Assembly (NCBI GenBank): GCA_020426425.1
Contig: JAGQQB010000001.1
Coordinates: 1 to 34,729, forward strand
Source: Planctomycetaceae bacterium
Lineage (GTDB): Bacteria; Planctomycetota; Planctomycetia; Planctomycetales; Planctomycetaceae
DNA length: 34,729 nt
Direction of reading: 5' to 3'
The notes beneath the pieces were generated by a model. It was not told where the DNA came from. It searched no databases and worked only from the letters and a program-made list of their open reading frames with translations. Positions within the stretch are counted from its first letter, which is position 1; every line of letters starts with the position of its first letter. The translations under genes were made by a program, and so were the position numbers. Shown here piece by piece: positions 1,207-22,647 of this stretch.

Positions 1207-4068
1207 ATGTCCACGGGCGTTCGGCTACCGAGCGGTGAATCCAGCGGCACAGCGTACGCGTTTGTGCGTCCGCTGCCGGGCGCTCCACGCGCATCAGACA
1301 GCAGCGTTTCGCATCCCAGGCTGCCAGCAGAGTTCGTGACTGGCGATGTCGCGGGAGTGCTCTTCCCTCCCAAGCACACCGATTCCGATCTGCTGCCCTC
1401 GGTTACAGGGATCGCATTGGGGCATTTCGTCATCGAGGAGCGAATTGGTCGCGGCGGCATGGGGGCGGTCTTCCGCGCGATTGATCAACGGCTGAACCGC
1501 GTCGTGGCTCTGAAGATTCTGACGCCACACCAGTCGATGGACGCCCAGGCGATTCAGCGATTCCAGAACGAGGCTCGTTCCGCGGCTCAGCTCGATCATG
1601 ATCACATCGCACGCGTGCATTTCGTGGGCGAAGAACGGGGGCTGCATTTCATTGCGTTCGAGTTTGTCACCGGGACCAACATTCGCGATTTCATTCTGCA
1701 GAAGGGGCGGCTCGAACCGATTGAAGCGGTGAGTTATACGCTGCAGGTGGCGGAAGCGCTGCGTCACACGGCGGCGCAAAACGTGGTGCATCGTGACATC
1801 AAACCGTCCAATCTGATCGTTTCCCCCACTGGTCGCGTGAAACTTGTCGACCTTGGTCTCGCACGGCAGTTGCGTGCCGACGAGGCGAGCGCTGAAGATC
1901 TCACGACCGCAGGGACCGCGCTGGGGACCTTTGATTACATCTCACCCGAACAGGCGCGCGATGCCCGCAACGTCGATGTCCGCAGCGACATCTATTCGCT
2001 CGGTTGTACGCTGTATCACATGCTGACTGGCGAACCTCCGTACCCACGGGGGACGATGATCGAGAAGGTCGTCAGCCATCACGGTGCACCGCCTGACCCG
2101 TCGCTCAAGAATCGCGATGTCACCCCTCAATTGGCCCAAGTCGTCCAAAAGATGATGGCCAGCAATCCGGACGAACGATACGCATCGCCCGATTTGCTCA
2201 TTCAAGATCTTGTGCAGGTAGCGGAAGACCTTGGTCTTACGCGGCTCCCGTCGGAAGGTTACATCTGGGCGAGACCACTGTTCTCGCGTGATCAAGGCCG
2301 AGGCCGAGGGACCAGAACCTGGTTCACGCTGCTGGCCGCCCTCGTGGTGATGGCGATTCTGGCGGACAAGTTGCCGTGGCTCGCGGGGGAGACTCCGGAA
2401 GCCCCGTTCCCTCCTGCTCCGTCGGTGACAATCGACGTGGCGCCCAAGGCCCTGGATGCCGCGCCGGCGCCTCCTGCGCCAGCGGCAGCAGGACCATTAG
2501 TCGCAGCGGATGCGTCCGCTGGCACTCCAGCGACAAATGCCGACACGCAAACCGGCGGCAACACGAACGACTCCCAGGCCAGCGGTGTGATCGCAGCATT
2601 GACCGCTATGCAGCAGGCGCGTGCAACGCTGGATGAACCGCCACCGCGGGAAGTGATCGAACCAGAACCCGGTCCGCTGACAATGGTCGATCCAGGTGAT
2701 CTGTTACTGGCGCCAGAACGTGGATCCGGCGAAGCTGTGTTGGCTCGACCCGGGACGACCACCATGAGTCCAGAGACCACGATTGCGGCAACCACTGGCT
2801 CGCCTAGGGTGAGTCCTGAGACCACCTTCCCTAAACCGCCAAGTGTGGCACCTGCAGTCCAGCAACCGTTTGTCCTCCTGGGGACTGATGGAGACCGGAA
2901 GCCATATGGCACGCTCTTCGCCGCACTGAATGATGCCTCCGACGATGCAGTGATCGAACTCGAATATAACGGCCGCGCCGCAGGTCCACAGGACCCACTG
3001 CGCGTGAGTGCCAAACGCATTCGCATTCGCCCCGCCGAAGGGTTTCGACCAGTTCTCGAATTCCAACAGAAGTCGGCGGCGGCGACCTCCATTAACTCCG
3101 CCATTCGTGGCATCACCTTACTCAACGGGATGCTCGAGTTGTACGACCTGGATCTGGAACTGCGCACAACAGCGAACTCGGTTGTCGACCAATGGGCCTT
3201 GTTCTCGTTGACTGGTCGTAGTGAAATTCTGCTCAAAGGCTGCTCCTGCACGATCGTCAACACGTATCTGCGTCCTGCGGTGTTGTTTGAACTCCCGGTG
3301 CGGCAGTCGTCGGGACTGACCCAAATGATGAACGACCAGATGCGGGCGCCGGGCTACTCGATTCGACTGGAAGAGTGTGTCATTCGTGGCCAGGCGGACT
3401 TTCTGCAGCAAGATCACGCGTACCCCACGGACGTGTCTCTGGAGAACGTCGCCCTGGCCCTCAGCGGGCACGTCCTGACAATTGATGGGCGCGACAATGT
3501 CTCGACTTCCAGTGGCGATGAAGAAGATGACCTCATCGACTTGAAGCTTAATCACGTTACGGCCCTGATGGGGGAAGGGTTGATTCAAGCGACTTCGGGC
3601 GACTACGGACGGTTCCCGGTCATTCAGGTTGACACCCGCAACAGCCTGTTCAGTTCACTCGATCCGCAGAAACCGCTGATCGAATTCTCTGGACACGAGG
3701 AACTCGACTTCCTGCTGGAAAAGCTTAGCTGGATCAGTCGCCGTGACCCCAACTTCTTTGAACTGACCGGCCCGATGTGGTTCGTCGATGCTCCGCAGTC
3801 GCTGGGACTGGAATTTCAACGGAGCTTCGACTTCGCGACATGGGCCGAATTCTGGGGAGAAGAAGGAGACGCAATCGTGCGTTCTGGGCTGTTCCGCAAT
3901 CCTCGCCTGGGACCGGTGTCGCAGCTCGCACAGATGGAGTCGGCCGATTTCGTCCTCCGATCGAGCGATGTCGTCCCCAACCCCGCTCAAAGTGCGACTG
4001 GCGATCGACGCGACTGCGGTGTTGATTGGTCGTCCCCGCGCGTTCCGCGGCATCTGCCGACCCCGTGA
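1207..4068 (+). CDS. membrane-anchored Hanks-type Ser/Thr protein kinase with large extracytoplasmic C-terminal region
   Basis: Kinase motifs present: glycine loop GRGGMGAVF, VALK, catalytic loop HRDIKPSNL (about 1789-1815), DLG (about 1848-1856) and SPEQ. One TM helix WFTLLAALVVMAIL lies at about 2320-2361. A Pro/Ala-rich linker follows, then about 430 aa of beta-rich sequence with no motif I recognise. Confidence 0.9.
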   Translation: MSTGVRLPSGESSGTAYAFVRPLPGAPRASDSSVSHPRLPAEFVTGDVAGVLFPPKHTDSDLLPSVTGIALGHFVIEERIGRGGMGAVFRAIDQRLNRVVALKILTPHQSMDAQAIQRFQNEARSAAQLDHDHIARVHFVGEERGLHFIAFEFVTGTNIRDFILQKGRLEPIEAVSYTLQVAEALRHTAAQNVVHRDIKPSNLIVSPTGRVKLVDLGLARQLRADEASAEDLTTAGTALGTFDYISPEQARDARNVDVRSDIYSLGCTLYHMLTGEPPYPRGTMIEKVVSHHGAPPDPSLKNRDVTPQLAQVVQKMMASNPDERYASPDLLIQDLVQVAEDLGLTRLPSEGYIWARPLFSRDQGRGRGTRTWFTLLAALVVMAILADKLPWLAGETPEAPFPPAPSVTIDVAPKALDAAPAPPAPAAAGPLVAADASAGTPATNADTQTGGNTNDSQASGVIAALTAMQQARATLDEPPPREVIEPEPGPLTMVDPGDLLLAPERGSGEAVLARPGTTTMSPETTIAATTGSPRVSPETTFPKPPSVAPAVQQPFVLLGTDGDRKPYGTLFAALNDASDDAVIELEYNGRAAGPQDPLRVSAKRIRIRPAEGFRPVLEFQQKSAAATSINSAIRGITLLNGMLELYDLDLELRTTANSVVDQWALFSLTGRSEILLKGCSCTIVNTYLRPAVLFELPVRQSSGLTQMMNDQMRAPGYSIRLEECVIRGQADFLQQDHAYPTDVSLENVALALSGHVLTIDGRDNVSTSSGDEEDDLIDLKLNHVTALMGEGLIQATSGDYGRFPVIQVDTRNSLFSSLDPQKPLIEFSGHEELDFLLEKLSWISRRDPNFFELTGPMWFVDAPQSLGLEFQRSFDFATWAEFWGEEGDAIVRSGLFRNPRLGPVSQLAQMESADFVLRSSDVVPNPAQSATGDRRDCGVDWSSPRVPRHLPTP

Positions 4069-4439: not shown

Positions 4440-7400
4440 ATGGTCGATTCCCCAAGTGCCCCCGCATCCCCTTCTCAACTGGAAGGCGGGACTTATGAGA
4501 TTCTGCGTCAACGCCTGGCAACGCACGCGAGCGATCTGCGCGATCGGCTGGACCAGCTCAACGAGCAACGTAAGTCCGTCTTCGGGTCCATCGATCTGCG
4601 TCTACTGACGACCGAACGAATTACCACCGATCACAACTGCGTTCCGCGCGACATGGTAGCGATCGGGCACCGCTTGCTGTTTGGATACAACGTTCACTTC
4701 GGTCTCAAGACCGAGCGGAACATCGAAGACGTTTTTGCCATCTATCGTTACGACGAGACCGAGCGCCAGTTGCACGTCGATGGTCTTGATCTGCTGCGTG
4801 ATGAACGATTCCTCAAAGACTTTCAGGAGGTCTATCGCTACTACAAGAACGCCACGTTCTCGAAGTTCTTCGTCACGCGCACGCACTTGTACATGGTGTT
4901 TCAGGTTGGTAAGGCGGCCACCGACATCAAGACGTTCAAGTGGGCGATCACGCCGGATGGTCTTGCCTATCTTGATAATCGCAGCGACCACGAGGTGCGG
5001 TACCCGCCACAGCATGAGTTCTCCTGGATTCGTACGACGCGCGACATGCATCGACCAGGGCTGCATCCGCACGTTTCGATTGAAGATCGCATCTTTGTCG
5101 AGACGGTCGGTGGCGATCTGACGATCAAAGTTGAGAACAACACGGAGAGCGGTGCCGGCATCTACTCCGAACCAGTCGACGATCCCGACCAAACGCTCGA
5201 TGATGCCGACATCAGCTATGCGGTCGTCGGCAACTGCATTTTGCTCAAAGTCCGCCCGTATCAGGAGCAGGCGAATCGGTTCATCGTCTACAACCAGAAG
5301 ATCGCTCAGGCGCGACGCATTGATGCGTTGCGCGATGCCTGCGTCCTGTTGCCGGATGATCACGGACTGATCTTCTCCAACGGGTACTACCTGCAGACCG
5401 GTGAACACAAGATGTTCGAAAGCGACATGCGCGGATTGCTATTCGAGCGGCGCATCGTTTCTCCCAACGGCGAGGACACGCTGTTCGTCTTTTACCAGCC
5501 TGAGACGGGCGTGTACGTGCTGCTCGGTTACAACGTCATTCGGCAGCAGGTGGAAACCCCCATCGTCTGTCACGGTTTCACGATGTTTCATGGCGGCGAG
5601 ATGATCCTGATCAAGTCGCCGGATCAGCCACAGAAGCATCATGCGATTCAGTTGTGGCAGACGCCTTATGTTGGCGCCGACTATGTCCCCGAGCAAACGA
5701 CTGATTCGTATCTGTACAAGATCGGTAACCGGGACATCGTGCGGGGAATGTCTGAATGCCACGAACTGCTAAGTCTCATTGATCAGGATGACAGCTACTC
5801 CGGCCTGTACATCGACCTTGTGCGTCAGTCGACGGACATTCTCGACAGCTTCTTCTGGATTCACGAAGAAACAGCGGGCAATCTTGGTGTTGCGCTGACC
5901 GAAGTTCGGGCAGCCGCCAAGGCGGCGGTGGATGAATTTGAAAAGGTAACGCGTGTCCGCCGCAACACAGCGGAACAGACGAGCAAGGTCAGCACTGCGA
6001 CCCGGGAAACCCTCAACGCCGTAGGGCGGCGGCGGTTCGATCGCGTTGAGGAGTTCGTCCAGTCGCTGGCGAATCTCCGCAAACTGCGCGGGGAGGTGAT
6101 CGCATTGCGTGACCTGCGCTACGTGGACGAGGAACTCATTGCCGGACTGGAACAGCAGATTTCCGCATCGTCCGATCAGCTTTCACATCGGTGCGTCGAG
6201 TTCTTGCTGCAGGACGATGCGCTCCAGCCCTACGAACAACGAATCGATGAACAACAGACGCAAATTGGCAAACTCCAAAAGGTCGCCGAAGCACGCGTAC
6301 TGGACGAACAGATTTCCGCCTCGGGTCATGAGCTGGAATTGCTGATCGAGATAGTCTCGAACCTAAAGATCGACGACGCGACGCAGCGCACGCGAATCAT
6401 CGACAATATCTCTGCCATCTTCAGTCGTGTGAATACCGCACGGGCAAGCCTGAAGCGGCGCCGCAGCGAACTGGCGAGCACGGAAGGGGCGGCGGAATTT
6501 TCCAGTCAGCTCAAGTTGCTCAGCCAGTCTGTCGTCAGTTCACTCGATGTCTGTGACACGCCCGAAAAATGCGAGGAGTACCTCACGCGATTGATGGTGC
6601 AGATTGAGGAACTCGAAGGCAAGTTCGCCGAGTTTGATGACTTCCTGCTGCAACTCGTCGAGAAACGGGAAGACGTTTCCGGCGCCTTTGAATCACGCCG
6701 CATGCAACTGGTTGAGCAGCGGAATCGTCGCGCGAACTCGTTGGCGCAGGCAGCTGATCGAATTCTCAAAGGGATTCGCTCGCGTGTCTCTGCGCTGGAG
6801 TCAATCCAGGAGATCCACGGCTACTTCGCCGCTGACCTGATGGTCGACAAGGTGCGCGATCTTATTGGCCAGCTCACCGAACTGGATGACTCGGTCAAAG
6901 CCGAGGACATTCAGTCGCGACTGAAGACGATTCGCGAAGATGCGGTTCGGCAACTCAAGGATCGTCAGGAACTGTTCGAAGAGGGCGCGAGCATCCTGCG
7001 ATTCGGACAGCATCGTTTCTCAGTGAACACGCAGTTGCTCGATCTGACGACCGTGTTGCGAGACGATCGATTGCATCTGCATTTGACCGGCACCGAGTTC
7101 TACGAACCGCTCGACAAGACCGAGTTAAATGAGACCCGACCGGTCTGGGGCATGGAGGTTTGCAGTGAGAATGCGGACGTTTATCGGGCCGAGTATCTCG
7201 CCTATCGCATGTTTCGCGAACTGGGGAACGCAATCGATCTGGCTGAGTCGAACGTGTTGGCAGCAGTCCAGCAGTTCATGGCCCCGCGATACGTGGAAGG
7301 CTACACCAAAGGAGTGCATGATCATGATGCCGCCCTCCTGATTCGCGCCCTGTGTGAGTCCGATCAGCACGCTGGGCTACTACGTTATTCACCCCAGGCG

Positions 7401-9815
7401 CGTGCGCTTGCGAGTTACTGTTGGCGGCAACTGTTCCCAAAGGCGGAACAACAGTTGATGGAGGCCGCGCTGCGAGGTATGGGGCATGTTGCCCGACTGT
7501 TCCCACAGACGCAAGGTCGCGATGAATTGTTACGGCGTCTGCGACGCCTGCTGCAACAGGCGCTCGCCCCCATCGACTCGGAGCTGGAGGTTTCGGCCCC
7601 GCTGATTGATGAAGCGGCACAATACCTGTTCGCGGAATTCACCGGTGGTGATCTCGAACAACGCGGTGACGCGTTCGCCGTCAGCCAGACTGCCGCAGAT
7701 CTGGTGCATGCGTTTCAGGAATATCTGCACACGCACAATGCGGAAGATCGATTTCAGCAATCAGTGAAAGCCCTGGCGGACGATCCACTCGCCGCATGGA
7801 AACTCGCCCAGGCGTGGCTCGATGCGTTCCAGCCTGTGCTCCCTGCAGCGACTCGCGCCGGACTGCACCAGGGATACATCGCGGAAGCCGGTTTGCTCTG
7901 CCTGGAACGAACGCTCGATGAACGTCGGATTCTCTCCGCGACAACGCATCACCAGCTTTCAGGGCTCATCGGATCACACGGCGTGATCGGCGAAGGGGGG
8001 CGGTATGAGTTCGACCTGCATCGCTTCGTCAATCGTCTGCGTCGGTTCGAATCTGAAACACTGCCCGCCTTCGAGCGCTACCATCAACTCAAAGGAGAGT
8101 TGGTTGACCGCGCCCGAGCCGCGATGAAGCTGTCCGAGTTCCAACCAAGAGTGCTTTCTTCATTCGTGCGGAATCGCCTGATTGACGAAGTCTACCTGCC
8201 GCTGATTGGAGACAATCTCGCCAAGCAGATTGGCACAGCGGGCGACGCGAAGCGAACCGATCGACAGGGACTACTCCTGCTCATCTCCCCACCGGGTTAC
8301 GGCAAGACGACACTGATGGAGTACATCGCGAATCGGCTCGGGATTATCTTCGTGAAAGTGAACGGCCCGGCGCTGGGGCATCAGGTAACGTCACTTGACC
8401 CCGCTGCCGCCCCGAACGCAGGAGCACGGGAAGAGATCGAGAAGCTCAACCTCGCGCTGGAAATGGGCGACAACGTCATGCTGTATCTGGACGACATTCA
8501 GCACTGTCATCCGGAGTTCCTGCAGAAGTTCATTTCGCTATGCGATGCCCAGCGGAAGATTGAAGGGGTGTGGAAGGGGCAAACCCGCACTTACGACTTC
8601 CGCGGCAAGAAAGTCGCCGTGGTTATGGCGGGCAATCCTTACACAGAGAGCGGCGAGAAGTTCCAGATTCCCGACATGCTTGCCAACCGCGCAGATATCT
8701 ACAACCTGGGCGAGATCATTGGGGAGACGCGCGAAGCGTTCGAGATGAGTTATCTGGAGAACGCTCTGACCTCGAATCCCATCCTGGCAAAATTGGCGGC
8801 CCGGTCACAACAGGATGTCTATGCGGTGATCAAACTCGCGGAGCAGGAGCGCCGCCGCGAATCGGCGGGACCGCTGAACATGCAAGGGATCGATTTCGAG
8901 GGAAGCTACTCGATGGAGGAACTGGGTGAGTTTGTCGCCACCATGACCCGCCTGATGCGTGTGCGCGATGTGGTCCTGCAGGTGAATCGCGAATACATTG
9001 CCTCCGCCGCGCAGCACGACGACTACCGAACCGAACCCCCATTCCTGCTGCAGGGCTCATACCGCAATATGAACCGCATCGGCGAGAAGGTCCTTCCGGT
9101 GATGAATGCGACGGAACTTGAAACGCTGATTGGCAGCAGCTACCAGAACGATGCCCAGACGCTGACCTCCGGTACCGAAGCGAATCTACTCAAGTTCAAG
9201 GAACTGCTCGGTACATTGACTGCCGACGAACAGACCCGCTGGGACCAGATTCGCCGGACATACCAGCAAAACGTCAAACTGCGTGGACTCAGTGCCGATG
9301 ACCATGTCGGCCAGGTGATTGCGACGCTCATGACTTTTTCTGATGGTCTGAACTCCATTCGCGAAGCGCTGCAATCGGGTGTGCAACGACTCTCTGCAGA
9401 TCGTAGTTCGGCGCAGGCGCAGGCGATTCAGTCGCAGTTAGCGGGAATGACCGAGCAACTGACGCAGGGACTCGATCGACTGACAGAGGCGGCGCGGCAG
9501 TCTGCTGAAGCGGCGATGCACAGACCATCGCGGGCCGGTTTGCCAAGTCCGCCGACCAACGATGCCGAGACCAGCGTCGATGCCGCCGGCCGATTGACGA
9601 TCGTGAACCGCATTCCGCGCACGGTCCTGAATGTGATGGAAACACAATTCGACCTGATGCAGAACTGGCTCCGGCCACTCAGTGAGATGACCACACGCCA
9701 GACCGCAGACCTTGAAAGCCTGCGTCCCATGGTCGAAGAGTGCCTGCAACACTACCGCGTGTTGTTGCGGAAGTTGGAGGAGGCGCACGAACGAGAATCT
9801 TCGGAAGATGAATGA
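4440..9815 (+). CDS. giant (1,791 aa) AAA+ ATPase of the MoxR/dynein-like clade with beta-rich N-domain and long coiled-coil region; function unknown
   Basis: Single uninterrupted ORF. Walker A is LLLISPPGYGKTTL (GYGKT at 8295-8309, Lys about residue 1289). Walker B is VMLYLDD (DD at 8490-8495). VVMAGNPYTESGEKFQIPDMLANRADIY resembles the MoxR/AAA_5 pattern (xxATxNP....G...LP.A.L.RF). Residues 1 to about 440 are strand-rich, and about 440-1260 and 1480-1791 are heptad-like helical. Confidence 0.9.
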   Translation: MVDSPSAPASPSQLEGGTYEILRQRLATHASDLRDRLDQLNEQRKSVFGSIDLRLLTTERITTDHNCVPRDMVAIGHRLLFGYNVHFGLKTERNIEDVFAIYRYDETERQLHVDGLDLLRDERFLKDFQEVYRYYKNATFSKFFVTRTHLYMVFQVGKAATDIKTFKWAITPDGLAYLDNRSDHEVRYPPQHEFSWIRTTRDMHRPGLHPHVSIEDRIFVETVGGDLTIKVENNTESGAGIYSEPVDDPDQTLDDADISYAVVGNCILLKVRPYQEQANRFIVYNQKIAQARRIDALRDACVLLPDDHGLIFSNGYYLQTGEHKMFESDMRGLLFERRIVSPNGEDTLFVFYQPETGVYVLLGYNVIRQQVETPIVCHGFTMFHGGEMILIKSPDQPQKHHAIQLWQTPYVGADYVPEQTTDSYLYKIGNRDIVRGMSECHELLSLIDQDDSYSGLYIDLVRQSTDILDSFFWIHEETAGNLGVALTEVRAAAKAAVDEFEKVTRVRRNTAEQTSKVSTATRETLNAVGRRRFDRVEEFVQSLANLRKLRGEVIALRDLRYVDEELIAGLEQQISASSDQLSHRCVEFLLQDDALQPYEQRIDEQQTQIGKLQKVAEARVLDEQISASGHELELLIEIVSNLKIDDATQRTRIIDNISAIFSRVNTARASLKRRRSELASTEGAAEFSSQLKLLSQSVVSSLDVCDTPEKCEEYLTRLMVQIEELEGKFAEFDDFLLQLVEKREDVSGAFESRRMQLVEQRNRRANSLAQAADRILKGIRSRVSALESIQEIHGYFAADLMVDKVRDLIGQLTELDDSVKAEDIQSRLKTIREDAVRQLKDRQELFEEGASILRFGQHRFSVNTQLLDLTTVLRDDRLHLHLTGTEFYEPLDKTELNETRPVWGMEVCSENADVYRAEYLAYRMFRELGNAIDLAESNVLAAVQQFMAPRYVEGYTKGVHDHDAALLIRALCESDQHAGLLRYSPQARALASYCWRQLFPKAEQQLMEAALRGMGHVARLFPQTQGRDELLRRLRRLLQQALAPIDSELEVSAPLIDEAAQYLFAEFTGGDLEQRGDAFAVSQTAADLVHAFQEYLHTHNAEDRFQQSVKALADDPLAAWKLAQAWLDAFQPVLPAATRAGLHQGYIAEAGLLCLERTLDERRILSATTHHQLSGLIGSHGVIGEGGRYEFDLHRFVNRLRRFESETLPAFERYHQLKGELVDRARAAMKLSEFQPRVLSSFVRNRLIDEVYLPLIGDNLAKQIGTAGDAKRTDRQGLLLLISPPGYGKTTLMEYIANRLGIIFVKVNGPALGHQVTSLDPAAAPNAGAREEIEKLNLALEMGDNVMLYLDDIQHCHPEFLQKFISLCDAQRKIEGVWKGQTRTYDFRGKKVAVVMAGNPYTESGEKFQIPDMLANRADIYNLGEIIGETREAFEMSYLENALTSNPILAKLAARSQQDVYAVIKLAEQERRRESAGPLNMQGIDFEGSYSMEELGEFVATMTRLMRVRDVVLQVNREYIASAAQHDDYRTEPPFLLQGSYRNMNRIGEKVLPVMNATELETLIGSSYQNDAQTLTSGTEANLLKFKELLGTLTADEQTRWDQIRRTYQQNVKLRGLSADDHVGQVIATLMTFSDGLNSIREALQSGVQRLSADRSSAQAQAIQSQLAGMTEQLTQGLDRLTEAARQSAEAAMHRPSRAGLPSPPTNDAETSVDAAGRLTIVNRIPRTVLNVMETQFDLMQNWLRPLSEMTTRQTADLESLRPMVEECLQHYRVLLRKLEEAHERESSEDE

Positions 9816-9882
9816 GGAACTCGCCGACCGTGGGTGCAGCTTGCGAATTGTCATTCAGTCAGCGCATTTGCAATCTACGCCA

Positions 9883-10078: not shown

Positions 10079-13000
10079 CTATCGACTCGCCTGCTGGCCT
10101 TTGAACATCGGATCGTTTCGGTTGCCGCGGGACAACAGGTACGCCATCAGGTCCAGAATCTCGTCTTCGTTAAGAGTGTTGAGCAGGCCGTTGGGCATCA
10201 TCGACACTGGAGAGGCTTTCATCTCTTCAATCTGCTTACGGTCCACACTTGCCAACTCGTTTGGATCGAGCATGTTCGTGTTGATCTTCAGCGAGTCCCC
10301 GGCCAGATTCATAATGCGTCCGACGACGACTTTCCCATCGAGTGTGAGAATCTGCACGGCAGCGTACTGATCGCTGATGACCTTGCTCGGATTCGTGATC
10401 GCTTCCAGGAGATACTTGCGGTCGAACCGTCCCGCGACTCCCGAGAGGTCGGGACCGACCGCCCCGCCCGTGTTGTCGAAGCGGTGGCATCCAAAGCAGT
10501 TGGCCGCAGCGAACATCTTCCGGCCATTTTCGAAATTGCGATTCTTGAGTTGTTCGACTTTGGGAAGCAGTTCGTCGAGTGTCCATTCTTTGACGAACGG
10601 ACGCGGGGCCGCAGAGAGCGGCGTGACGAGTCCTTCGGGCTTCTTGTCGAGGATCGGTTGCAGCACGACCTTCTCTTCGTCGGACAGGAGCGCAACGGCA
10701 TCCTTCTTCATCTCATCGACAAACATCGTGAAGCTTGCTCCGCCACGATAGCCAGCTGCGCGGACGTACCATTCGAAGTAGCGGGCCTGCAGTTCCGGAG
10801 TCCAGCCGGTCCGCAAATGGCGCAGGGACTTGGCGAATGAGATCTGCTCTTCCTGCGTTGGCGCAGCTTCCAGCAGCGCGACCCCTTTCTCTGCCGCCTG
10901 TGCGCTTTGCAGGAAGATCAGGATGTCGAGCAGCATGTTGTCGTACTCGAACCGACCATGTGGCAATCGCGGTTCCAGTGCCGCAACGACACCATCCCGC
11001 AGTTCCTGAATCGGCATGTCGAACCTCAGCAACGCCAACTGGATGATCCGTAGTGACTGCAGCGACTGCTCATAGGTGAACTCGTTGTCACGATCCAGGC
11101 GATCCAGCGTTTCCAGGATCGCCACCTGCAACAACCGCTGATCGTTGGCACTCCCGTCGGCGGGCGGGTACTCCGTGGGCGACGGGGTGTCGACCGCTTC
11201 ACCTGGCTTCTTGCCTGCGCGTTCCTGTGTGCGGACCAGGGCAAGCAGCGCCTCGAGTGCGGTCGTGAGATGCGGTTCGGCAATCGCTTTCGCCGCCCAC
11301 TCTTCGCGTGGACGATGTTCGATCGCCACTCGGGCGGCGGTACGAATCGTCCGATCAGGATGCGACAGATACGGCCACGCGACTTCAACCGCTTCAGGGT
11401 GATCGCCAAGATGCAGTTCTTCCAACCGGCGTCGGAGCTTGCGATCATCCGCACCGGCGGTGTTGGCGGCATCGACCGGTTCGGTTGGCTCTGCCCCGGT
11501 GTAGGTCACCTTATACAACCCCGACTGCACGCGGCGTCCACCGATCGCAAAGTACATCGCGCCATCGTGTGGGTTGATCACAATGTCCGTCAGCGGCAAT
11601 GGTGTGCCGGTGATGAACTCCTCGAACTTGGCAGAGTAGCTCCCACCCTGCGGTTGCAGATGCACAGCATACAGTTTGCCATAACTCCAGTCATTGATGA
11701 AGAACGCCTGCTGGTACTTGGCAGGGAACTTCGCTCCGTAACCAAACGTCACTCCGGTTGGTGATCCGGGACCAATGTTGACGACCGGCGCTGGAGTATC
11801 GGCGAAGTACTCGGGGAACTTCGCACTGCCATTTCGCCACCCGTAATCGACCCCGCTGAGCACCTGGCATACACGCGTGGGGCGATACCAGGGGGTGTTC
11901 ATGTCCCATTCCATGTCGGCGTCATAGGTAAACAGTTCGCCATCGGCGTTGAATGCGGCGTCGTACTGGTTGCGGAAGCCGACGGTGATCAATTCCCAAT
12001 GCTTGCCATCGGGATCAATTTTGCTGACATACCCCCCAGGCGCCGGAACGCCTTTCATAAAACCTCGCCCATACACACGGGGCAGCATGTGGTCTTCATC
12101 CCACAGCTTGGGCACGCGCGACGCTGTGAATTCTGTGAGGTTCGTCTTATTGCCACACACCACGTAGAGCGATTCTCCGTCTGGGCTGAGCAGCACGGCA
12201 TGGGGACCGTGTTCGCCACCAGTGCCAGGCAGCAGTCGCAGCGTTTCGAGCGCGTCGAGTTGATCATCGCCATCGGTATCGCGCACTCGGTACAGGCCGC
12301 TCTCGTACTTCTGACCTTTGTTGACGACGACATACAAACTGTCGAAAGCCCAGAGCAAGCCCTGCGCCTCGCCGATGTCGACAGGGATCGGTTCGATCTG
12401 AATTTCTGTCGCCCCTTGGATTCCCGGCGGGGTGATTCGAAAGAGTCCGCCATATTGGTCGCAAGCAATTAGTCGCCCCTTGGGATCCACGCACATGCTG
12501 ACCCAGGAGCCTTCCTCGGTCATTGGAACCGAGTGGAGCAGATCGACCTGAAACCCCTTAGCGATGATCATGTGATCGATCGGCGTCGCCTCAGGCTGTT
12601 TGAGATTGCCAACTGCCAGCAGTTGTTCATCGGTCAGCTTCCATGGTTCCCCGCCAATCTCGCCAACCACATCGACCTTCCGCCAGTCGTCTCCCGGCTT
12701 GAAGTCGACCTGTTGCCAACCTTTGGCCGCCTTGGTCGCTCCGAGCCAAGAGGCATCAGAGACTTCGGCCCACGTATCGCGCCAGCCGGATTCCAACACG
12801 AGCTTGAGTAACACACCGGCCGCCGACTTGCTGTTCTCCGCCGCGACGGCGATGACATGTTTTCCTCCCGGAGTTTCCCGCTCCAGTTGCTTGGTGATGT
12901 CCATGAACGCGGGTTTGCCCCAGTTGGCATGCTTGAGCACTTGCTGCCCATCGACGAAGACCGTCAGGCGGTCATCGGCAGTGGCGTACAGACGTCCCGA

Positions 13001-13210
13001 GGCAATCGCTCCCTGAATCGTGATCTCCTTGCGCAGGAAGACCTTGCCCGCCGGCGTGTCGCCTTCGTTCAGCCAGATCCAGGAGGGTTTCGCCAGCTCC
13101 GGCCGAGGCTTCTTTTCTTTCTTCCCCTGTGCGAGACCGACAGCAGTCGTTAGCGTCAGAGCGAGTCCCAGGACGATGTTCAAACCACGGCGCATCGGTT
13201 GTGTGTTCAT
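10079..13210 (-). CDS. PVC-type heme-binding CxxCH protein (membrane-bound dehydrogenase-like beta-propeller + HEAT-like repeats + C-terminal cytochrome c domain)
   Basis: C-terminal ANCFGCHRF (CFGCH encoded at 10484-10498), then [20 protein letters not shown] and the [11 protein letters not shown] Met ligand region. This is typical of the Pirellula/Verrucomicrobium heme-binding domain. The central region resembles glucose/sorbosone dehydrogenase-type propellers. The longest ORF starts at 13261, but the signal peptide [29 protein letters not shown] begins at ATG 13210 (alternative 13195). Confidence 0.9.
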
Positions 13211-13366
13211 CAGCAAAGTGCATCTTGAAAGCAGGAGACGGTGCGACCGCTGGGCCGCCAAATTTGAGCGAATATGCTAACAGAGACGCCTGCCTGCGGC
13301 AAAAGCGTGGGCACTTTCGCCGGAGTTGCGTGCGTCGTGAAGTCCGCGTTGTACTGTGAATCGATC

Positions 13367-16321
13367 CTACCGCCGCACGAACAGCCAGTAGATCACTCCC
13401 AGCAAGAGGAGATTGACCCCGATCAGAATCCACAGGCGACGGTTCAACCAGGGTTGCTCCGCAGGCACAACTCCGCCAGGGACAAGATTGGGGATTTGTT
13501 GGCGGGGGCGTTTCGGTGTCAGTTTTGCCAGCAGCGGGCTGTTGAGGAACTCGGTGTGCGACACCATATTGTCGCCATCGACATCGGAACTGAGGAGAGC
13601 TTCCTCAATCTTGGCGGCAAACGCTTGCGCTTTGGCCCACTCCTCAGATTGCGGATCGGCACTCGCCGCCGTCCGACGACGGGTCAGTTCCTCTGAGCTG
13701 AGCCGCTGGTCATTGTTCTCATCGAAGTATTCAAAGAGGCGGTCCGGTGGTAGTTCGTTGATCTTCGTCTTGAATCGCCGTTCGGCAAAAGAGAGTTCGC
13801 CATCGTGATTTGTGTCCCATTGCCGGAAAGCCCACAACCGGTATCCATGGGCCAAGAGCGGTTCGTATTCGTTCGCAACCCCCCCGGCAATGAACTCGGC
13901 GGCACTCAGACGCCCATCGATGCTGCTGTCGACCGGGTCGCTCCAGTCATCCACAGGATTCGTCAATGGGCATCCGCAAAACTCCCGAAAGCTCAACTTG
14001 CCATCGCCATCGTCATCGAAGGCAGGGATCAACCGATCTGCGTAACGTCGAAACCAGTCGGGAGGATCGTGTGTGAGTTCACTGAGACTCACTTGAGCAT
14101 CGAGATCAGTGTCCAGCTGCAGAAACGTACGCAGTGGATCCGACCAGAACACACTCCCTTGCAGCAGTTCCGGCAAAGTGAGGACTTGATCGCCATTGAC
14201 ATCGATCCGTTCGCACCAGGCGTGCAACTTCTCACCTGGAATCCCGCCCTTCTTTGCAGCGGTTGCATACGACAACCCGGCACTGCCAGCTTCCAAGCCA
14301 TTGAAGTAGTTCCGAACCGAAAACCGCAGACCCACGGGAGAACGCAGCGATGGTCCTTTCAATCCGGCTCGCAGGCCATAGAGCACCTCGAGACCATTTC
14401 GCAGTTCGTCCACGGTGACCGCCTCGTCGGAATTGATGTCGAGTTGTCCGAGATCCAACCTTGGGGGGACCGCGCTCATCTCTTCCGGGACGGGATACTC
14501 GCCCTGGTACTTCCATTCATCGGGCGACCACTGGGAGTCGTGGTTGGTGTCCAGTGGGCGGAGCAACTTGACCCACTGCTCGAGCAATTCCGGAATGCGG
14601 TCGGCGACTGGATCCGGGAATCGACCTCGCAATCGTTCATTGTTGTTGCGTGGTAAGGACAGGAACTCCTCAAAGTTCAAGCCGGCACTTTGGTCGAAAT
14701 CGAGGACCGTGAGTTGCTGCCGCAGTACGTCCGGACGCTCATCCGTCTGAGCGACAATCAACTCCGCTTCGCTGACTTCGCCATCCATGTTGCGATCTGC
14801 GTCCCGGAACTGATTCCAGAGAACCCGACCATGCTGCCGCCACAACTGGACCGTATCTTGAAGGGCCACGGCGGGAATGAGTTCATCTGCCGCAAGTACC
14901 TCGTCGTGGTTCACGTCCACTTCCCCAAACAACGGGCGGAACCAGGAAAGCATTGGCACCTGGGGATCGGGACCAGGGAGTCCGAAGGCCTCGTCAAACG
15001 TCACGTGACCATCGTCGTTCAGATCGAGTGAGGTGGCGAGTGCTGCGGGCTGAACTTCCACCCGGCGCACTTTGAACGGCAGTTCCGCCTGAGCGAGTGA
15101 CTCGGGTTCGTCATCCGTTTGCAGTGCATCGAACATCCAGCGCGCCTGGGCCATTACCAGTTCGACTTCGGCGGCGACTGCACCATCGGGAATGGACTGG
15201 ACCAGGAACTCAGGCCAGGTCAGCTTCAGATCATTGTCTTCGTCTGAGTACGCACGAAACCAGTCACCCAGCGTGAGTCCCCAGGCTGAGCCCAAATACT
15301 CCGTCAACGAGAGTTGGCCGTCGTGATTGCGGTCGGCGGCGTGAAAGTAGAAAGCGAAGTTGCGTTGTTCCCATTTGGGTGCCTTTTGCCGGACTTCCTC
15401 GGCGGACAACAGCCCATCACCCGCCTGGCCATTCACGCCGACATCCCACTTCGCAAAGTCGCTCACCAGATCTTGCCGTAAGATCGCGTTGCTGGCGGCT
15501 TCGGCGAACGAGAGTTGCCCATCCTCATCCTTGTCCGCCCGGCCAAACAGCGCCGCTCCTTTCTCCGGTCCCCCCCAGAACTCGGGCACAAACTCTTCAC
15601 GCGAGAGCAACCGATTCTGGTCCACGTCCCACTTCAGCCATTTCTTCCAGTTGAACGCTTCGCCGCCATTCCGCAGATTCGCTTCACCCGCGCGCAGTCC
15701 GTAGATCGCGAGCAGCCGCTGTTCGACTTCGAGGCTCGTCACCGTTTGATCGGCGTTGCGATCCCAACCCGCGATCGGCTGCCAGGGAATCCAGTTTGGC
15801 AGTCCATCCGGGGGGGCGAGCGACGCCCATTCCGCAGGATCCAGATGCCCACTCTGATCAATGTCGGCGGCGGCGATCATGTCGACGGACTGCTTGATGA
15901 TCGCGTTCGCTCTGCGCTGCATTGGATCGGGAATCGACGCACGGTCTTTCGCACGCTCAAAGGCACGGTGCAGCCGCCACTCGTTGAAGGTGAGATCGCC
16001 CGATCGATCCGCATCACATATCCGCATTCGCTGTGTCTGTTCAGCGATGGATTCCGGAGGGATCTCAACCAGCAGTTCACTTAGTTCGACCCCTCCACTC
16101 TCGTTGCGATCCAGTTCACGAAAGACCTTCCGTAGCGACTGTGTTTTCTTCTGCTCGGCGGAGAGAATTCTGATCCGGTGTGGCAGGGGAACCGGAGGCG
16201 GGGAGTGTGTGTTGACTACCGGAATGATTGTCGAGAGGACGCGAGAATCGTCCGCGTGAAGCTCGTGCGCTGCGGAGTTTGCGAACGCAAGCAGCAGCAT
16301 GCCAGTCAGCAACAGACGCAT
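13367..16321 (-). CDS. secreted poly-EF-hand calcium-binding protein (about 22 EF-hand-type loops) with C-terminal TM anchor
   Basis: I count 21 canonical 12-residue D-x-[DN]-x-[DNS]-x6-E loops plus one irregular loop, for example DADRSGDLTFNE, DKDEDGQLSFAE, DRNHDGQLSLTE, DDDGDGKLSFRE and DTNHDGELSFAE. The signal peptide MRLLLTGMLLLAFANSAAHE starts at internal ATG 16321 (longest ORF starts 16483). The C-terminal helix is LWILIGVNLLLLGVIYWLFVRR. Confidence 0.85.
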   Translation of the reverse strand: MRLLLTGMLLLAFANSAAHELHADDSRVLSTIIPVVNTHSPPPVPLPHRIRILSAEQKKTQSLRKVFRELDRNESGGVELSELLVEIPPESIAEQTQRMRICDADRSGDLTFNEWRLHRAFERAKDRASIPDPMQRRANAIIKQSVDMIAAADIDQSGHLDPAEWASLAPPDGLPNWIPWQPIAGWDRNADQTVTSLEVEQRLLAIYGLRAGEANLRNGGEAFNWKKWLKWDVDQNRLLSREEFVPEFWGGPEKGAALFGRADKDEDGQLSFAEAASNAILRQDLVSDFAKWDVGVNGQAGDGLLSAEEVRQKAPKWEQRNFAFYFHAADRNHDGQLSLTEYLGSAWGLTLGDWFRAYSDEDNDLKLTWPEFLVQSIPDGAVAAEVELVMAQARWMFDALQTDDEPESLAQAELPFKVRRVEVQPAALATSLDLNDDGHVTFDEAFGLPGPDPQVPMLSWFRPLFGEVDVNHDEVLAADELIPAVALQDTVQLWRQHGRVLWNQFRDADRNMDGEVSEAELIVAQTDERPDVLRQQLTVLDFDQSAGLNFEEFLSLPRNNNERLRGRFPDPVADRIPELLEQWVKLLRPLDTNHDSQWSPDEWKYQGEYPVPEEMSAVPPRLDLGQLDINSDEAVTVDELRNGLEVLYGLRAGLKGPSLRSPVGLRFSVRNYFNGLEAGSAGLSYATAAKKGGIPGEKLHAWCERIDVNGDQVLTLPELLQGSVFWSDPLRTFLQLDTDLDAQVSLSELTHDPPDWFRRYADRLIPAFDDDGDGKLSFREFCGCPLTNPVDDWSDPVDSSIDGRLSAAEFIAGGVANEYEPLLAHGYRLWAFRQWDTNHDGELSFAERRFKTKINELPPDRLFEYFDENNDQRLSSEELTRRRTAASADPQSEEWAKAQAFAAKIEEALLSSDVDGDNMVSHTEFLNSPLLAKLTPKRPRQQIPNLVPGGVVPAEQPWLNRRLWILIGVNLLLLGVIYWLFVRR

Positions 16322-16587
16322 CTTCGGGGCCCTTTGGGTTTCGTCGAGTTCGAGAAGTTGCCGTCCACCCTGGCTCGCGTCGGCGGAATCTGCCGCAGTC
16401 GACCGAGTTGAGTCGATCGACAACAGCCGCGATTCTGACGGTTTGCCTACGCAACTTGAAGCTTTTTTCCAGCAGCCGAACATTTTTTTATGACGGAGTC
16501 CGGATTGTGACGATGAGACAGAAGAGGTGAACTGCCGTGACCATGTGGCTGCGCGCCGATTGCTGACTCAGCACTGTCGAGACTTCG

Positions 16588-18099
16588 ATGAACGAGCAAG
16601 GCTTAGAATTTCTGCCAGACGACGTGAAGGAGACACCCGAGCTCCTATCCGTATCTCCCGGTGCCCGATTGGCGTTACGGCTTTCCATGTCTCCGTGGTT
16701 ATGGGGCGCGGTGTTGACGTGTGGCGTCTATGGTGCGATCAACGTGTTGCCGGTCGGACGAGATCTAGCACAGCGGTACTTCTGCAACCATCCGCTCGAA
16801 TACGCGTTGGCCGCACTCTTCTGCGTCGGGCTCGCCATCATTCTTGCCAAGACGCTGACCAATCGCTGGGAATGGTCTGCGTTTCGCAAGGCACGACAAC
16901 TTCCGATCGACTCGAACGAAGTCCCCTATGCGGAACGCCTCGATCTGTTGAAGAGTCACGCCAGCCAGTTCACCACAAATCTGCACGAAACATACTGGGG
17001 GCACCGACTGGGGCACTTGTGGTCGTTCCTCAGCGGCAAACCTCGTGCTGATGGAATCGCCGACCATCTGAACTACCTCTCGGAATCGTCGCTGGATCGG
17101 CTCCATGCCAGCTACAGTTTGATGAATACCATCATCTGGGCGATTCCCATTGTCGGGTTTCTCGGAACCGTGATGGGGATCACGCTGGCGATCGCCAATA
17201 TCACTCCCGACCAACTGGAAACGTCGATGGGCGCGGTCACCGGCGGACTGGCGGTCGCGTTCGACACGACCGCAGTCGCGTTGACCTGGTCGCTCGTCCT
17301 CGGCTTCGCTTCTCTGTTCGTCAAACGAACGGAAGAACAGTTGCTCGCCGAGATCGACGAACAAACCCGCGTCGAAGTGAATCGCTGCTTCCCGGCGGAA
17401 CAAGCCGAGAGCCCCCTGTTGTTGGCGCAGAGCGATGCCGCCCGGCGCGTCATTCAGGAAACCGACGAACTGGTACGCCAGCAACGCGATCTGTGGCAGA
17501 CCGCTGTCGATGCATTCCGTAGTGACTGGTTCGAGACACTGCAGCGGCAACAGGCAGAGTTGGGCACATCGTTGAGCAATGCGACCGCCAGTGCTGCCGG
17601 GAGTCATGCGCAACAACTGCGTGAATTCCGCGATGAATTCGTCACGGCGTATCAGGCGGTGTCGGCATCGCTCGGAGCCGAACTGCGACAACTCGAAACG
17701 GGACGCGCGCTGTTCTCTGATCGGTTGAGTGCGACACTGGAGACATTCGATGATCGCCTGCGATCGGGGCTCGAACAGCAACTGGAGCAACAGCGGCAAG
17801 CCAACGAACAGACGACGGAACAGGTGGTCGGGCAGTTGACGCGTCTGGAAGATGCGATCACGCAGTGGCAATCTCAGTTCGCCGAGCTCTCTGCCGCCAG
17901 TCGCGAACATGCTCAGGAGTTGCGATCTCAAACCGACCTCCTATCGCAACTGGTCGGTCAGAAGTCGGAGCTGGCCGAACTGCAGTTGCGACTGACAGAC
18001 AATCTTCAAGCGGTCCGGTCCGCCGAGACATTCGACGAAACGCTGCACAATCTGACTGCTGCGGTGCATCTGCTCACGGCGCGCGCCCGGGCGGCTTAG
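16588..18099 (+). CDS. MotA/TolQ/ExbB-family proton-channel protein with about 245-aa C-terminal coiled-coil tail
   Basis: Four predicted TM helices. The TM3-TM4 region (about 17149-17352) reads IWAIPIVGFLGTVMGITLAI...MGAVTGGLAVAFDTTAVALTWSLVLGF. This matches the family signature (P.vGLlGTV.GM ... GIa.AL.tTa.GL). Residues about 256-503 are continuous Q/E/R/L-rich helix. Confidence 0.85.
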   Translation: MNEQGLEFLPDDVKETPELLSVSPGARLALRLSMSPWLWGAVLTCGVYGAINVLPVGRDLAQRYFCNHPLEYALAALFCVGLAIILAKTLTNRWEWSAFRKARQLPIDSNEVPYAERLDLLKSHASQFTTNLHETYWGHRLGHLWSFLSGKPRADGIADHLNYLSESSLDRLHASYSLMNTIIWAIPIVGFLGTVMGITLAIANITPDQLETSMGAVTGGLAVAFDTTAVALTWSLVLGFASLFVKRTEEQLLAEIDEQTRVEVNRCFPAEQAESPLLLAQSDAARRVIQETDELVRQQRDLWQTAVDAFRSDWFETLQRQQAELGTSLSNATASAAGSHAQQLREFRDEFVTAYQAVSASLGAELRQLETGRALFSDRLSATLETFDDRLRSGLEQQLEQQRQANEQTTEQVVGQLTRLEDAITQWQSQFAELSAASREHAQELRSQTDLLSQLVGQKSELAELQLRLTDNLQAVRSAETFDETLHNLTAAVHLLTARARAA

Positions 18100-18141
18100 T
18101 CGCCTTTCGCGTTGTCCGCACGTTCCTGATGGTTCCACTCC

Positions 18142-20409: not shown

Positions 20410-20412
20410 CCG

Positions 20413-21597
20413 ATGGCCCGCAGACACAGCTCCGATGAGATCGCATTCAGTTCCGATTCGTTCCTCGACATTGTCGCGAACATGGTCGGCATTCTGATCA
20501 TTCTGATCGTGATCGCTGGCGTTCGCGTGAGCCGCGCGCCGGTCGTACTGCCGGTGATCGAGAACACGTACGATCTCGCCGCACTGCCGCATCCCGACTT
20601 CAGCGACCCGCCCATCGTGCAACAGATTATCGTCGCCGATCCACAGGTTGTCGGCGAACTGACCGATCCGGAACCACCAGTTGAGACACCGTTCGTCAGT
20701 ACGCCACCACCCAAACCGGCTCCCGAACCAGAACCGATTCCGGTCTTTCCGCCATTGCCGGAGCTGCATCCTCCAGCGGATCTCGTCATGACCGCCAAGG
20801 ATCTGGGCGCCGAACTCGAACGCCTCCAGGCCGCCCAATCAGGAGAGGAGCAGCAGTTTCAGGAATTGCAAACGTCTCAGCGTGCCTTGGTTGAAGCGCT
20901 GCAACAGCAGCGAAGCGAGGTGGCCATGTTGACACAGCAAGTCGACTCCATGTCCCAGACCAGTCAGGAGGTCACAACCGAATTGCGTTCGCGTCAACTG
21001 GCGGTGTCGCAGGCGCAGCAACGATTGGCACAAGTCCAGTCAGCCGAATCGCCAACGAAAGAACTGAAACACCAGATGACGCCGGTCTCCAAGGTGGTTA
21101 CCGGGAAAGAGGTCTTCTTTCGGTTGGCAGAGAATCGCGTTTCGTACCTGCCAATGATGGAACTCGCGGAACTGCAAGCGCAGGATTTGCAGCGTCGCCG
21201 CACGGCGCTGCTGGTTGGGCAGTTGTATCAGGGGAAGGTTGGACCGGCGCAAGGTTACGAACTGGCGTACATTGCCCAGTTGGAGGAACGCTCGTTCGCC
21301 GAGGAACTCGGCGGAGGTCGCCGCGTGGGCATCAGCTGGATGCTGCGCCCGCATGTGACATTGCACACGGAGTCGGTCGACGAAGCACTCCGTCCGGGCT
21401 CTCGTTTCATGCAGGCGTTGGCTGATGCTGGTCCCACAGCAACCGTCACCTTCTGGGTTTATCCGGACAGCTTCGAGATTCATCGCCGACTCAAACAGTA
21501 TGCCGAAGAGACCGGTTACTGGATTGCCACCCGACCGATGCCGTTCGACGTACCGATCGCCGGCACACCGGACGGATCGCGCTCGCGAGCGCAGTAG
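20413..21597 (+). CDS. single-pass membrane protein (394 aa) with ExbD/TolR-like anchor retaining the conserved Asp, Pro-rich spacer, coiled coil and C-terminal alpha/beta module
   Basis: ATG at 20413 is 3 nt after the upstream TAA (20407-20409). The N-terminus DEIAFSSDSFLDIVANMVGILIILIVIAG resembles the ExbD/TolR motif (..TPLIDVvfvLLiFF), with Asp19 encoded at 20467-20469. PPPKPAPEPEPIP is the spacer and the coiled coil spans about residues 130-215. Confidence 0.85.
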   Translation: MARRHSSDEIAFSSDSFLDIVANMVGILIILIVIAGVRVSRAPVVLPVIENTYDLAALPHPDFSDPPIVQQIIVADPQVVGELTDPEPPVETPFVSTPPPKPAPEPEPIPVFPPLPELHPPADLVMTAKDLGAELERLQAAQSGEEQQFQELQTSQRALVEALQQQRSEVAMLTQQVDSMSQTSQEVTTELRSRQLAVSQAQQRLAQVQSAESPTKELKHQMTPVSKVVTGKEVFFRLAENRVSYLPMMELAELQAQDLQRRRTALLVGQLYQGKVGPAQGYELAYIAQLEERSFAEELGGGRRVGISWMLRPHVTLHTESVDEALRPGSRFMQALADAGPTATVTFWVYPDSFEIHRRLKQYAEETGYWIATRPMPFDVPIAGTPDGSRSRAQ

Positions 21598-21735
21598 CCC
21601 CAACTCCGTTTGTGAGTGGTCCCCGATCGCCAGCAGTCGATAGGATGCGTCAACCGCGTGACAAGTCCCTGCATCGGCTGGTTGCGTTCAGCAATCTTTC
21701 TCCTCTGCCCGTGGCCCGTCGGCCGGACCGAAACC

Positions 21736-22647
21736 ATGTCGCTCCCCACTCCAGGTACCCCGCCCGATCCTCAGCGTGTGGGAGAACTGTTTCGCAAATT
21801 CTGCGATGTCATCGCCCGGCTGCGAGCTCCAGATGGTTGCCCGTGGGATCGTCAGCAGACACTGGCGACCATCAAGCCGTATACGCTCGAAGAGACCTAC
21901 GAGCTACTCGAAGCGATCGACTCCGGCGATGATCACGCGATCGTCGAAGAACTGGGCGATGTGCTGCTGCAGGTGGTGCTCGATGCACAGATCGGGGCGG
22001 ATGAAGGTCGGTTCGACATCGTTGAGGTATTGGAGGGGATCACCGCGAAGATGATTCATCGGCATCCTCACGTGTTTGGGGATGTCCGTGTCAGCGATGC
22101 CTCCGAAGTGCGACAGCACTGGGATCAGGCAAAGGCGGCGGAGGCGGCCAAGCAGGAACGAACATCCGCGCTCGATGGCATTCCCGACGCGCTCCCCGCG
22201 CTGGCCCGAGCCGCGCGGCTCTCGAAAAAGGCCGCACGCGTCGGTTACGACTTTCCCCACCGAGCGATGCTGTTCGACAAACTGCGGGAGGAAATCGAGG
22301 AATTGCGTGCGGAACTCGATCCACAAGGGAACATGCCCGAGATTCCCGCAGCGGTCGACATGGCACCGGTCCCCGATGAACCAATCGACGATGCCGCGCG
22401 TCGAGACCGCATCGAAGGGGAACTGGGAGATGTCCTGTTCGTGGTTGCCAACATCGCCCGCCGCTGGGACGTCAATCCGGAAGAAGCTCTCCGCCGAGCC
22501 AATCGCAAATTCTCCCGGCGCTTCCAGCATATCGAAGCGGGATTGCAGGCGTTGAATAAGACGATCCGCGACGCCACCTTGCAGGAGATGGAGGCACTCT
22601 ATCAAGAGTGCAAGGTGTTGGAGCGGAAAGGGGGGAATAGGGAGTAG
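21736..22647 (+). CDS. mazG: nucleoside triphosphate pyrophosphohydrolase MazG (tandem MazG domains)
   Basis: [33 protein letters not shown] and [12 protein letters not shown], followed by [11 protein letters not shown]. The second domain carries [37 protein letters not shown]. Start set at ATG 21736, since the 40-aa extension from GTG 21616 looks non-protein-like. Confidence 0.9.

Follow-up and report, generated by a model that had tools for sequence, protein, structure and literature searches.

The 34,729-nucleotide stretch of Planctomycetaceae bacterium DNA analyzed here (positions 1 to 34,729 of contig JAGQQB010000001.1, assembly GCA_020426425.1; hereafter the window) carries on its forward strand a gene for a large AAA+ ATPase. 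The gene is a single unbroken open reading frame (ORF) of 1791 codons at positions 4440-9815, with its start assigned to the first ATG past an in-frame stop. At a window GC content of ~58%, the calculated odds of 1791 codons without a stop are ~1e-28. The uninterrupted 5.4-kb ORF reported in a preliminary description of this DNA, which was made by reading the sequence alone, is therefore real. The motif positions given there are also exact, with GYGKT at 8295-8309 (residues 1286-1290) and DD at 8490-8495 (residues 1351-1352), and the motif MAGNP...IPDMLANRADIY is found in the translated ORF. The product is soluble and lacks a transmembrane segment (19-residue hydropathy maximum of 1.0). In the preliminary description, the protein was regarded as an orphan with no nameable motif in residues 1-440, and neither statement can be maintained. 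Pfam family PF12458 (DUF3686, 'ATPase involved in DNA repair') matches residues 32-472 over the full model (positions 1-448 of 448) with 654 bits (cut-off 25) and E=1.2e-196. Furthermore, >6,900 homologues were recovered at E<=1e-5 from a database of 5.8 billion proteins. The window gene is a member of a known, functionally uncharacterized family.

The DUF3686 family is made up of colinear members in at least ten phyla. The best 120 of the >6,900 homologues are full length, with 99-100% query coverage and 54-66% identity, and are mostly from planctomycetes. An exhaustive search with residues 1-700 yielded 727 clusters at 50% identity (E<=1e-10), in which complete members are 1,600-1,930 amino acids (aa) long. 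When a 29%-identical Vibrio member was used as the seed, the same architecture was found in Vibrio, Proteus mirabilis, Neptuniibacter, Pseudoalteromonas, Cellvibrio, Gilliamella, and Persicimonas. A one-genome-per-species scan found relatives in Planctomycetota, Bacteroidota, Verrucomicrobiota, Kiritimatiellota, Desulfobacterales, Calditrichia, Hydrogenedentota, and Candidatus Ozemobacter, and a plasmid search found others in Streptomyces, Nonomuraea, Deinococcus, Hymenobacter, Halomonas, and the Pseudomonas fluorescens SBW25 plasmid pQBR103. Hundreds of genomes encode full-length colinear homologues. With this layout being the norm in the family, the ORF is not a fusion artifact, a possibility that the preliminary description had named as refuting.

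Names given to these proteins in databases can be misleading. The NCBI name is 'DNA repair ATPase', in agreement with the preliminary description, and no experimental paper on the matter was found; JGI labels some homologues 'MoxR-like ATPase'. A true function in DNA repair is extremely improbable. Apart from the name, the evidence in its favor consists of weak RuvB matches (E 1e-4, well under cut-offs) that do not reach beyond Walker A. Neither a DNA-binding nor a nuclease domain was found, the neighbors encode membrane proteins rather than repair enzymes, and literature searches returned no paper that backs the name.

Features of the ATPase and the gene upstream, with positions in the window
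Feature	Residues	Positions	Strand	Basis or remark
Complete ORF, DUF3686/'DNA repair ATPase' family member, soluble	1-1791	4440..9815	+	
N-terminal long helix	17-48	4488..4583	+	AlphaFold2 model 1
Predicted beta-propeller, ~28 strands	54-407	4599..5660	+	pLDDT ~90; DUF3686 core
Long helices, coiled-coil-like, ~420 residues	424-845	5709..6974	+	AlphaFold2
Pfam DUF7902, within the helical region	593-677	6216..6470	+	E=3.1e-30
Small five-stranded beta domain	852-890	6993..7109	+	Both models
Globular all-helical domain	916-1155	7185..7904	+	Model 2, pLDDT ~90
AAA+ module; alpha/beta core 1278-1422, then helical lid	~1246-1615	8175..9284	+	Pfam, Foldseek
Walker A, SPPGYGKTT (K1289)	1283-1291	8286..8312	+	Invariant in 54 diverse homologues
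Walker B, MLYLDD, followed by invariant IQH	1347-1352	8478..8495	+	Sequence and 54-sequence alignment
Predicted pre-sensor-1 beta-hairpin, between Walker B and sensor 1	1373-1386	8556..8597	+	Model 2 strands 533-538 and 541-546
Sensor-1 strand, VVMAGNP (N1399)	1394-1400	8619..8639	+	Sequence and alignment
Candidate arginine finger R1417 (ANRADIY), just ahead of strand beta-5	1417	8688..8690	+	Invariant N1416-R1417; model 2
C-terminal long helices	1622-1693, 1727-1790	9303..9812	+	Model 2
Disordered linker joining the two C-terminal helices	1694-1727			Model 2
Hanks-type Ser/Thr kinase, 953 aa, one hydrophobic segment near residue 375		1207..4068	+	Upstream of the ATPase gene

Two AlphaFold2 models (mean pLDDT 85.6 and 85.5), the first of which covers residues 1-900 (window 4440-7139), were built from a 54-sequence alignment that includes distant members of the family. 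The strand-rich character previously noted for residues 1-440 is evident in the ~28 strands that the first model places in residues 54-407. This N-terminal domain is predicted to be a beta-propeller of about seven blades, and its matches in a Foldseek search of the Protein Data Bank (PDB) are 6- and 7-bladed propellers (Elp1, DCAF1, CyRPA, prolyl oligopeptidase, and YncE; E 1e-6 to 1e-4). Sequence searches of the PDB, conducted with the single sequence and with a family profile, gave coiled-coil noise and otherwise aligned to p97, Rix7, and RuvB solely around Walker A, where the matches at E ~1e-4 span just ~40-60 residues. As a separate observation, the model of residues 1-900 also matches IFT-A subunits, clathrin heavy chain, and nucleoporins (Foldseek E 3e-6 to 1e-4), and planctomycetes are known for coat-like proteins. 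This likeness is probably at the level of architecture only, and no homology is inferred. A protocoatomer-like reading was dropped, given that Foldseek matches of the propeller-plus-helices model reach a TM of only ~0.1.

Judged by Pfam, AlphaFold2, and Foldseek, the domain layout that was first proposed is broadly right, although the helical region must be redrawn. The long helices assigned to residues 440-1260 are predicted for 424-845, where DUF7902 (PF25472; 105 bits) is also located and is present in all of the listed homologues. They do not extend through the small beta domain, in which G856, F860, V862, N863, and T885 are invariant among the 54 sequences, or through the globular helical domain at 916-1155. 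The C-terminus, described as coiled-coil-like, can be divided into a lid with helices to ~1615, the long helices beyond residue 1622, and the disordered linker at 1694-1727.

The protein has a single AAA+ module, which lies toward the C-terminus. The region is near-invariant over phyla, and the family motifs SPPGYGKTT, DDIQH, AGNP, and NR are all present in the window ATPase. Residues K1289, D1351-D1352, N1399, and R1417 are invariant in the 54 diverse sequences, and the position of R1417 in the model makes it a candidate arginine finger. The fold that had been recognized by eye is confirmed by Pfam, in which residues 1274-1404 score marginally above cut-offs for AAA (28.0 bits), AAA_5 (27.7 bits; cut-off 22), and AAA_22 (31.8 bits), and by Foldseek, in which the C-terminal model matches MCM, NorQ, CbbQ, RuvB, Cdc48, ClpC, and spastin at E ~1e-5. 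The more specific assignment to the MoxR/dynein clade is plausible but not established. The MoxR-type proteins NorQ (0.57) and CbbQ (0.48-0.52) do give the top target-normalized TM values, but MCM, ClpC, Cdc48, RuvB, and spastin have similar E-values. In the region that corresponds to MoxR helix 2 (1309-1326), model 2 predicts a loop and no beta-hairpin insert, and an NCBIfam scan of the ATPase gave no MoxR match. With respect to the classical AAA clade (Cdc48/p97, Rix7, NSF), similarity is confined to Walker A, and the predicted pre-sensor-1 hairpin argues against membership.

These data also bear on whether the protein might be a MoxR-type chaperone whose VWA/MIDAS partner is encoded elsewhere. 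The AAA_5 score, the NorQ and CbbQ folds, and the JGI labels would fit such a function, as would the motif GNPx6Gx5Px5R, which resembles that of MoxR. Like NorQ, CbbQ, and RavA, the ATPase has a single AAA+ module, a predicted pre-sensor-1 hairpin, and a similar spacing between sensor 1 and the arginine finger. Unlike these proteins, it carries ~1,450 additional residues (propeller, helices, and extra domains), making it five times the size of MoxR. Its sequence similarity to them is marginal and no better than that to other AAA+ families, given that AAA and AAA_22 score equal to AAA_5 and that MCM, Clp, Cdc48, and RuvB yield similar E-values. Moreover, the conserved partner of the family is flotillin and not a VWA protein. 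The absence of a VWA partner noted at the outset extends well beyond the window, which has no VWA gene: among >85 loci no VWA cluster appears among the conserved neighbors, and the single VWA_CoxE gene, in locus L091, is unrepeated. A MoxR-VWA function is therefore very unlikely.

The preliminary description had seen no partner of any kind, and this is true only of the window. In Symmachiella and Gimesia, a ~205-aa gene and a ~700-aa gene precede the ATPase gene on the same strand and are conserved between both genomes. Their NCBI and UniProt names are YqiJ and YqiK, or 'flotillin family protein', and NCBI also uses 'SPFH domain-containing protein' for the larger partner. When 82 related loci were searched with tblastn, a flotillin-like gene was found upstream on the same strand in 68, and a YqiJ-like gene was found upstream in 57, with many of the others being truncated contigs. 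Six of the 14 loci that lack a flotillin-like gene have <400 nucleotides (nt) of upstream sequence. After later look-ups were added and loci were restricted to those with usable upstream sequence, a flotillin gene was present in 76 of 85 evaluable loci, with a YqiJ/NfeD-like gene as the other member of the conserved partner pair. Unbiased clustering of ORFs identified the flotillin and YqiJ genes as the only widely conserved neighbors of the ATPase, and the median gap between the flotillin and ATPase genes is 131 nt. The complete YqiJ-flotillin-ATPase triad occurs in Symmachiella, Gimesia, Proteus, Vibrio, pQBR103, Streptomyces, Deinococcus, and Hymenobacter.

The identity of the larger partner as a flotillin rests on Band_7 matches in a minority of members (4 of 24, best E=3e-13), on a match of the family profile to the Escherichia coli SPFH protein QmcA (E=1e-4), and on the NCBI names, because most of these partners give no match when scanned singly against Pfam and NCBIfam. 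The small partners match YqiJ_N in 13 of 23 cases and NfeD in 5 of 23, and the top two PDB matches of their profile, both weak, are the NfeD-type 'stomatin operon partner' and YuaF. In some Bacteroidota, other genes lie between the flotillin and ATPase genes, such as DMP19-like and DUF3997 genes in L060 (8612-9698), DUF5687 and ABC ATPase genes in L066 (7340-9905), and additional inserted gene sequence in L050 (9193-9882), which shows that the cassette tolerates insertions. In two distant loci, genes found near the triad include the tellurite-resistance-type TelA in Vibrio (L085 13502-15823) and TerD in a Streptomyces plasmid (L087 14678-15211), as well as one for a ClpX-like ATPase. These neighbors fit a general membrane- or metal-stress neighborhood and are not conserved.

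Operons of this type have already been published on a computational basis only. Flotillin-YqiJ/YuaF-AAA+ operons tied to PspA have been described, including four-element operons with CesT/Tir-PspA and a YqiJ/YuaF membrane protein, as well as widespread shortened flotillin-YqiJ(-ATPase) operons (Ravi et al. 2024, mSystems, PMC11237479). Because the Pfam name is not used in that paper, whose supplement has no 'DUF3686' entry, the equation of DUF3686 with the published ATPase rests on the match in operon and architecture. The architecture is the same, in that the AAA+ module is preceded by a propeller and coiled coil, and the operons of Hymenobacter, Pseudomonas, Proteus, and Vibrio involve the same protein family. 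The window differs from these operons in that flotillin, YqiJ, and PspA genes are lacking, and the ATPase gene is located behind a Ser/Thr kinase gene in housekeeping surroundings. Literature searches on DUF3686/PF12458 proteins and their flotillin operon found no experimental study.

The PspA link drawn in PMC11237479 has parallels among the loci collected here. An extended cassette on a Hymenobacter plasmid (L089 34-9347) has the order CesT/Tir chaperone-PspA/IM30-DUF1449(YqiJ)-flotillin-ATPase. On pQBR103 (L086 1-10650), the triad directly follows yjf-type DUF2491-DUF350-DUF1190-glutathionylspermidine synthase genes, which constitute a PspA-associated neighborhood, and a phospholipase D gene is located ~8 kb downstream. 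Thus, the ATPase might remodel PspA/IM30 (ESCRT-III-like) polymers in the manner of Vps4, with flotillin and YqiJ serving as a recruiting membrane platform. As in Vps4/ESCRT-III and PspF/PspA-type systems, an AAA+ ATPase is found near genes for PspA, a member of the ESCRT-III superfamily, in some of these operons. However, PspA adjoins only a small minority of loci, whereas just flotillin and YqiJ are widely conserved. The DUF3686 ATPase also belongs to another AAA+ clade than Vps4, and a Pfam scan revealed no MIT-like or other known PspA-binding domain. A primary role on PspA polymers is consequently unlikely.

Flotillin-unlinked copies of the ATPase are the rarer kind in the DUF3686 family, and the window provides one of them. 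No flotillin or YqiJ/NfeD homologue was found in the window by tblastn and by a hidden Markov model (HMM) search of all six frames. In a neighbor-joining tree, the window ATPase forms a monophyletic group with those of L005 (72% identity) and L083 (66% identity), all of which are unlinked, and the sister clade of L003, L091, and L092 retains flotillin genes. The window ATPase is from a small planctomycete subclade that lost its flotillin linkage, and unlinking arose independently in several Bacteroidota and Desulfobacterales lineages. Distances of the unlinked subclade to outgroups are ~5-15% above those of its linked sisters, and all invariant residues are kept; therefore, the gene is still under selection. 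Given such purifying selection, the window ATPase has probably kept its working partnership with a flotillin, whose gene would lie at another site in the genome.

In place of the missing partners, the kinase gene lies 372 nt upstream on the same strand, exactly in the slot held by yqiJ-like and flotillin genes in most relatives. The ATPase might accordingly have taken on a flotillin-independent role in this subclade that is controlled by the membrane Ser/Thr kinase. The pair is kept in L005 (65% identity for the kinase and 72% for the ATPase), and the repeated origin of unlinked copies would be compatible with such a role. Several observations make it distinctly unlikely. Among the 82 loci, the arrangement recurs only in L005, the closest relative, and shared ancestry can explain a kinase-ATPase link of this extent. 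The third subclade member, L083, lacks the kinase, although the same 3-keto-disaccharide hydrolase gene precedes its ATPase gene. In five other loci, kinase genes lie within 10 kb and vary in position and orientation, and planctomycetes are kinase-rich in any case. The family-invariant residues are all retained, with no marked acceleration of rate. With respect to co-transcription of the two genes, a scan around the ATPase gene found no promoter-like site, and a terminator scan found one weak hairpin (9829-9845) that is within chance. The C-terminal half of the kinase was also considered as a diverged flotillin, and this was rejected when BLASTP revealed no similarity to the flotillin partner.

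The remainder of the window is made up of chromosomal housekeeping genes (secDF, yajC, tgt, alaS, and mazG) and of genes typical of planctomycetes, including those for a PVC-type heme-binding protein and EF-hand repeat proteins. A possible connection to the cluster at 16588-21597 (+), suggested in the preliminary description, was not borne out, as the three proteins of this MotA-like operon match none of the 82 related loci in tblastn searches. The product of its first gene is a channel protein of the MotA/ExbB type (503 aa), which has a long helical tail and is weakly ZorA-like (PADLOC ZorA2, E=7e-12; NCBIfam ZorA, E=2e-4). The others encode a 755-aa protein with no family match and a coiled-coil protein of 394 aa. 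The cluster, in which a ZorB/OmpA-like partner was not recognized, is followed by mazG (21616-22647). Many EF-hand calcium-binding repeats are present in proteins of 1038 aa (13367-16483, -) and 614 aa (29788-31632, -), the former of which also matches the XopAW calcium-binding effector model. The 1060-aa heme-binding CxxCH protein (10079-13261, -; TIGR02603, TIGR02604) marks the DNA as a planctomycete/PVC chromosome.

This housekeeping context is relevant to the proposal that the ATPase is part of a mobile conflict or anti-phage defense system. A giant NTPase with a patchy distribution over phyla at >50% identity, which suggests horizontal transfer, might be expected of such a system, as might its presence on large plasmids of Pseudomonas, Hymenobacter, Deinococcus, and Streptomyces. 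In addition, an AbiEii fragment and a DUF559 endonuclease-like gene adjoin two unlinked copies. Nevertheless, PADLOC gave no match for the ATPase, a Pfam scan found no effector domain (nuclease, protease, TIR, or other), the gene is surrounded here by secDF, yajC, tgt, alaS, and mazG, and the conserved partners elsewhere are membrane-scaffold proteins. A defense function is very improbable and, like the MoxR-VWA and DNA repair functions, has little or no support.

Overall, the ATPase is on balance likely to be the AAA+ component of a flotillin-YqiJ module at the inner membrane, where it would act as an ATP-driven remodeler or cofactor of flotillin (or PspA) assemblies. The mechanism is inferred by analogy with pairs of SPFH and AAA+ proteins such as HflK/C-FtsH, and with AAA+ remodelers generally. 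HflK/C-FtsH and the prohibitin-m-AAA protease system each pair an SPFH cage with an AAA+ machine, and in the DUF3686 loci a scaffold of the SPFH family is likewise genetically coupled to an AAA+ ATPase. The DUF3686 ATPase would be located on the cytoplasmic face of the membrane as the partner of a flotillin scaffold. Its AAA+ modules would come together as a ring. Docking on flotillin (or PspA) assemblies would be mediated by the propeller and the helical arms, and under membrane stress these assemblies would be built, remodeled, or dismantled at the expense of ATP. Unlike FtsH, the DUF3686 ATPase has neither a protease domain nor a membrane anchor, its partner is a flotillin-type SPFH protein with a long cytoplasmic coiled coil, and the coupling described here is one between genes.

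Certain points weigh against this role. Because flotillin and YqiJ/NfeD homologues are absent from the 34.7-kb window, co-function in this organism is assumed. Similarly, ~10% of evaluable loci lack the partners, and the ATPase may therefore also function on its own. Pairwise identities among the ATPases and among their own flotillins are correlated (r=0.89), as would fit co-evolution, but part of this mirror-tree signal comes from the phylogeny that the species share. Also, the Walker B motif is DD instead of the usual DE throughout the family, being invariant in the 54 diverse members, which is unusual for an active AAA+ motor. Hydrolysis may be slow, or the catalytic arrangement may be atypical, and instead of working processively as a motor the protein might act as a nucleotide-dependent switch or scaffold.

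An extended version of the flotillin hypothesis would make DUF3686 proteins the long-missing energy-consuming machines that build or dismantle flotillin cages. Each would consist of AAA+ motors arranged in a ring and bearing helical arms tipped with propellers, the counterpart of FtsH for HflK/C or of Vps4 for ESCRT-III, and the planctomycete lineage of the window may have uncoupled the machine from its operon and placed it under the control of a membrane Ser/Thr kinase. This full combination is improbable. This large, strongly conserved ATPase accompanies flotillin and an NfeD-like partner over many phyla, which makes it an obvious candidate for the active component that bacterial flotillins still lack. 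The database name 'DNA repair ATPase' misdirects experimenters, and family members are present in the tractable organisms Proteus mirabilis, Vibrio, and Pseudomonas fluorescens carrying pQBR103. The window itself adds little that is new beyond the persistence of an unlinked ATPase. This case, in which the ATPase persists under selection when flotillin-unlinked, bears on the question of flotillin-independent activity.

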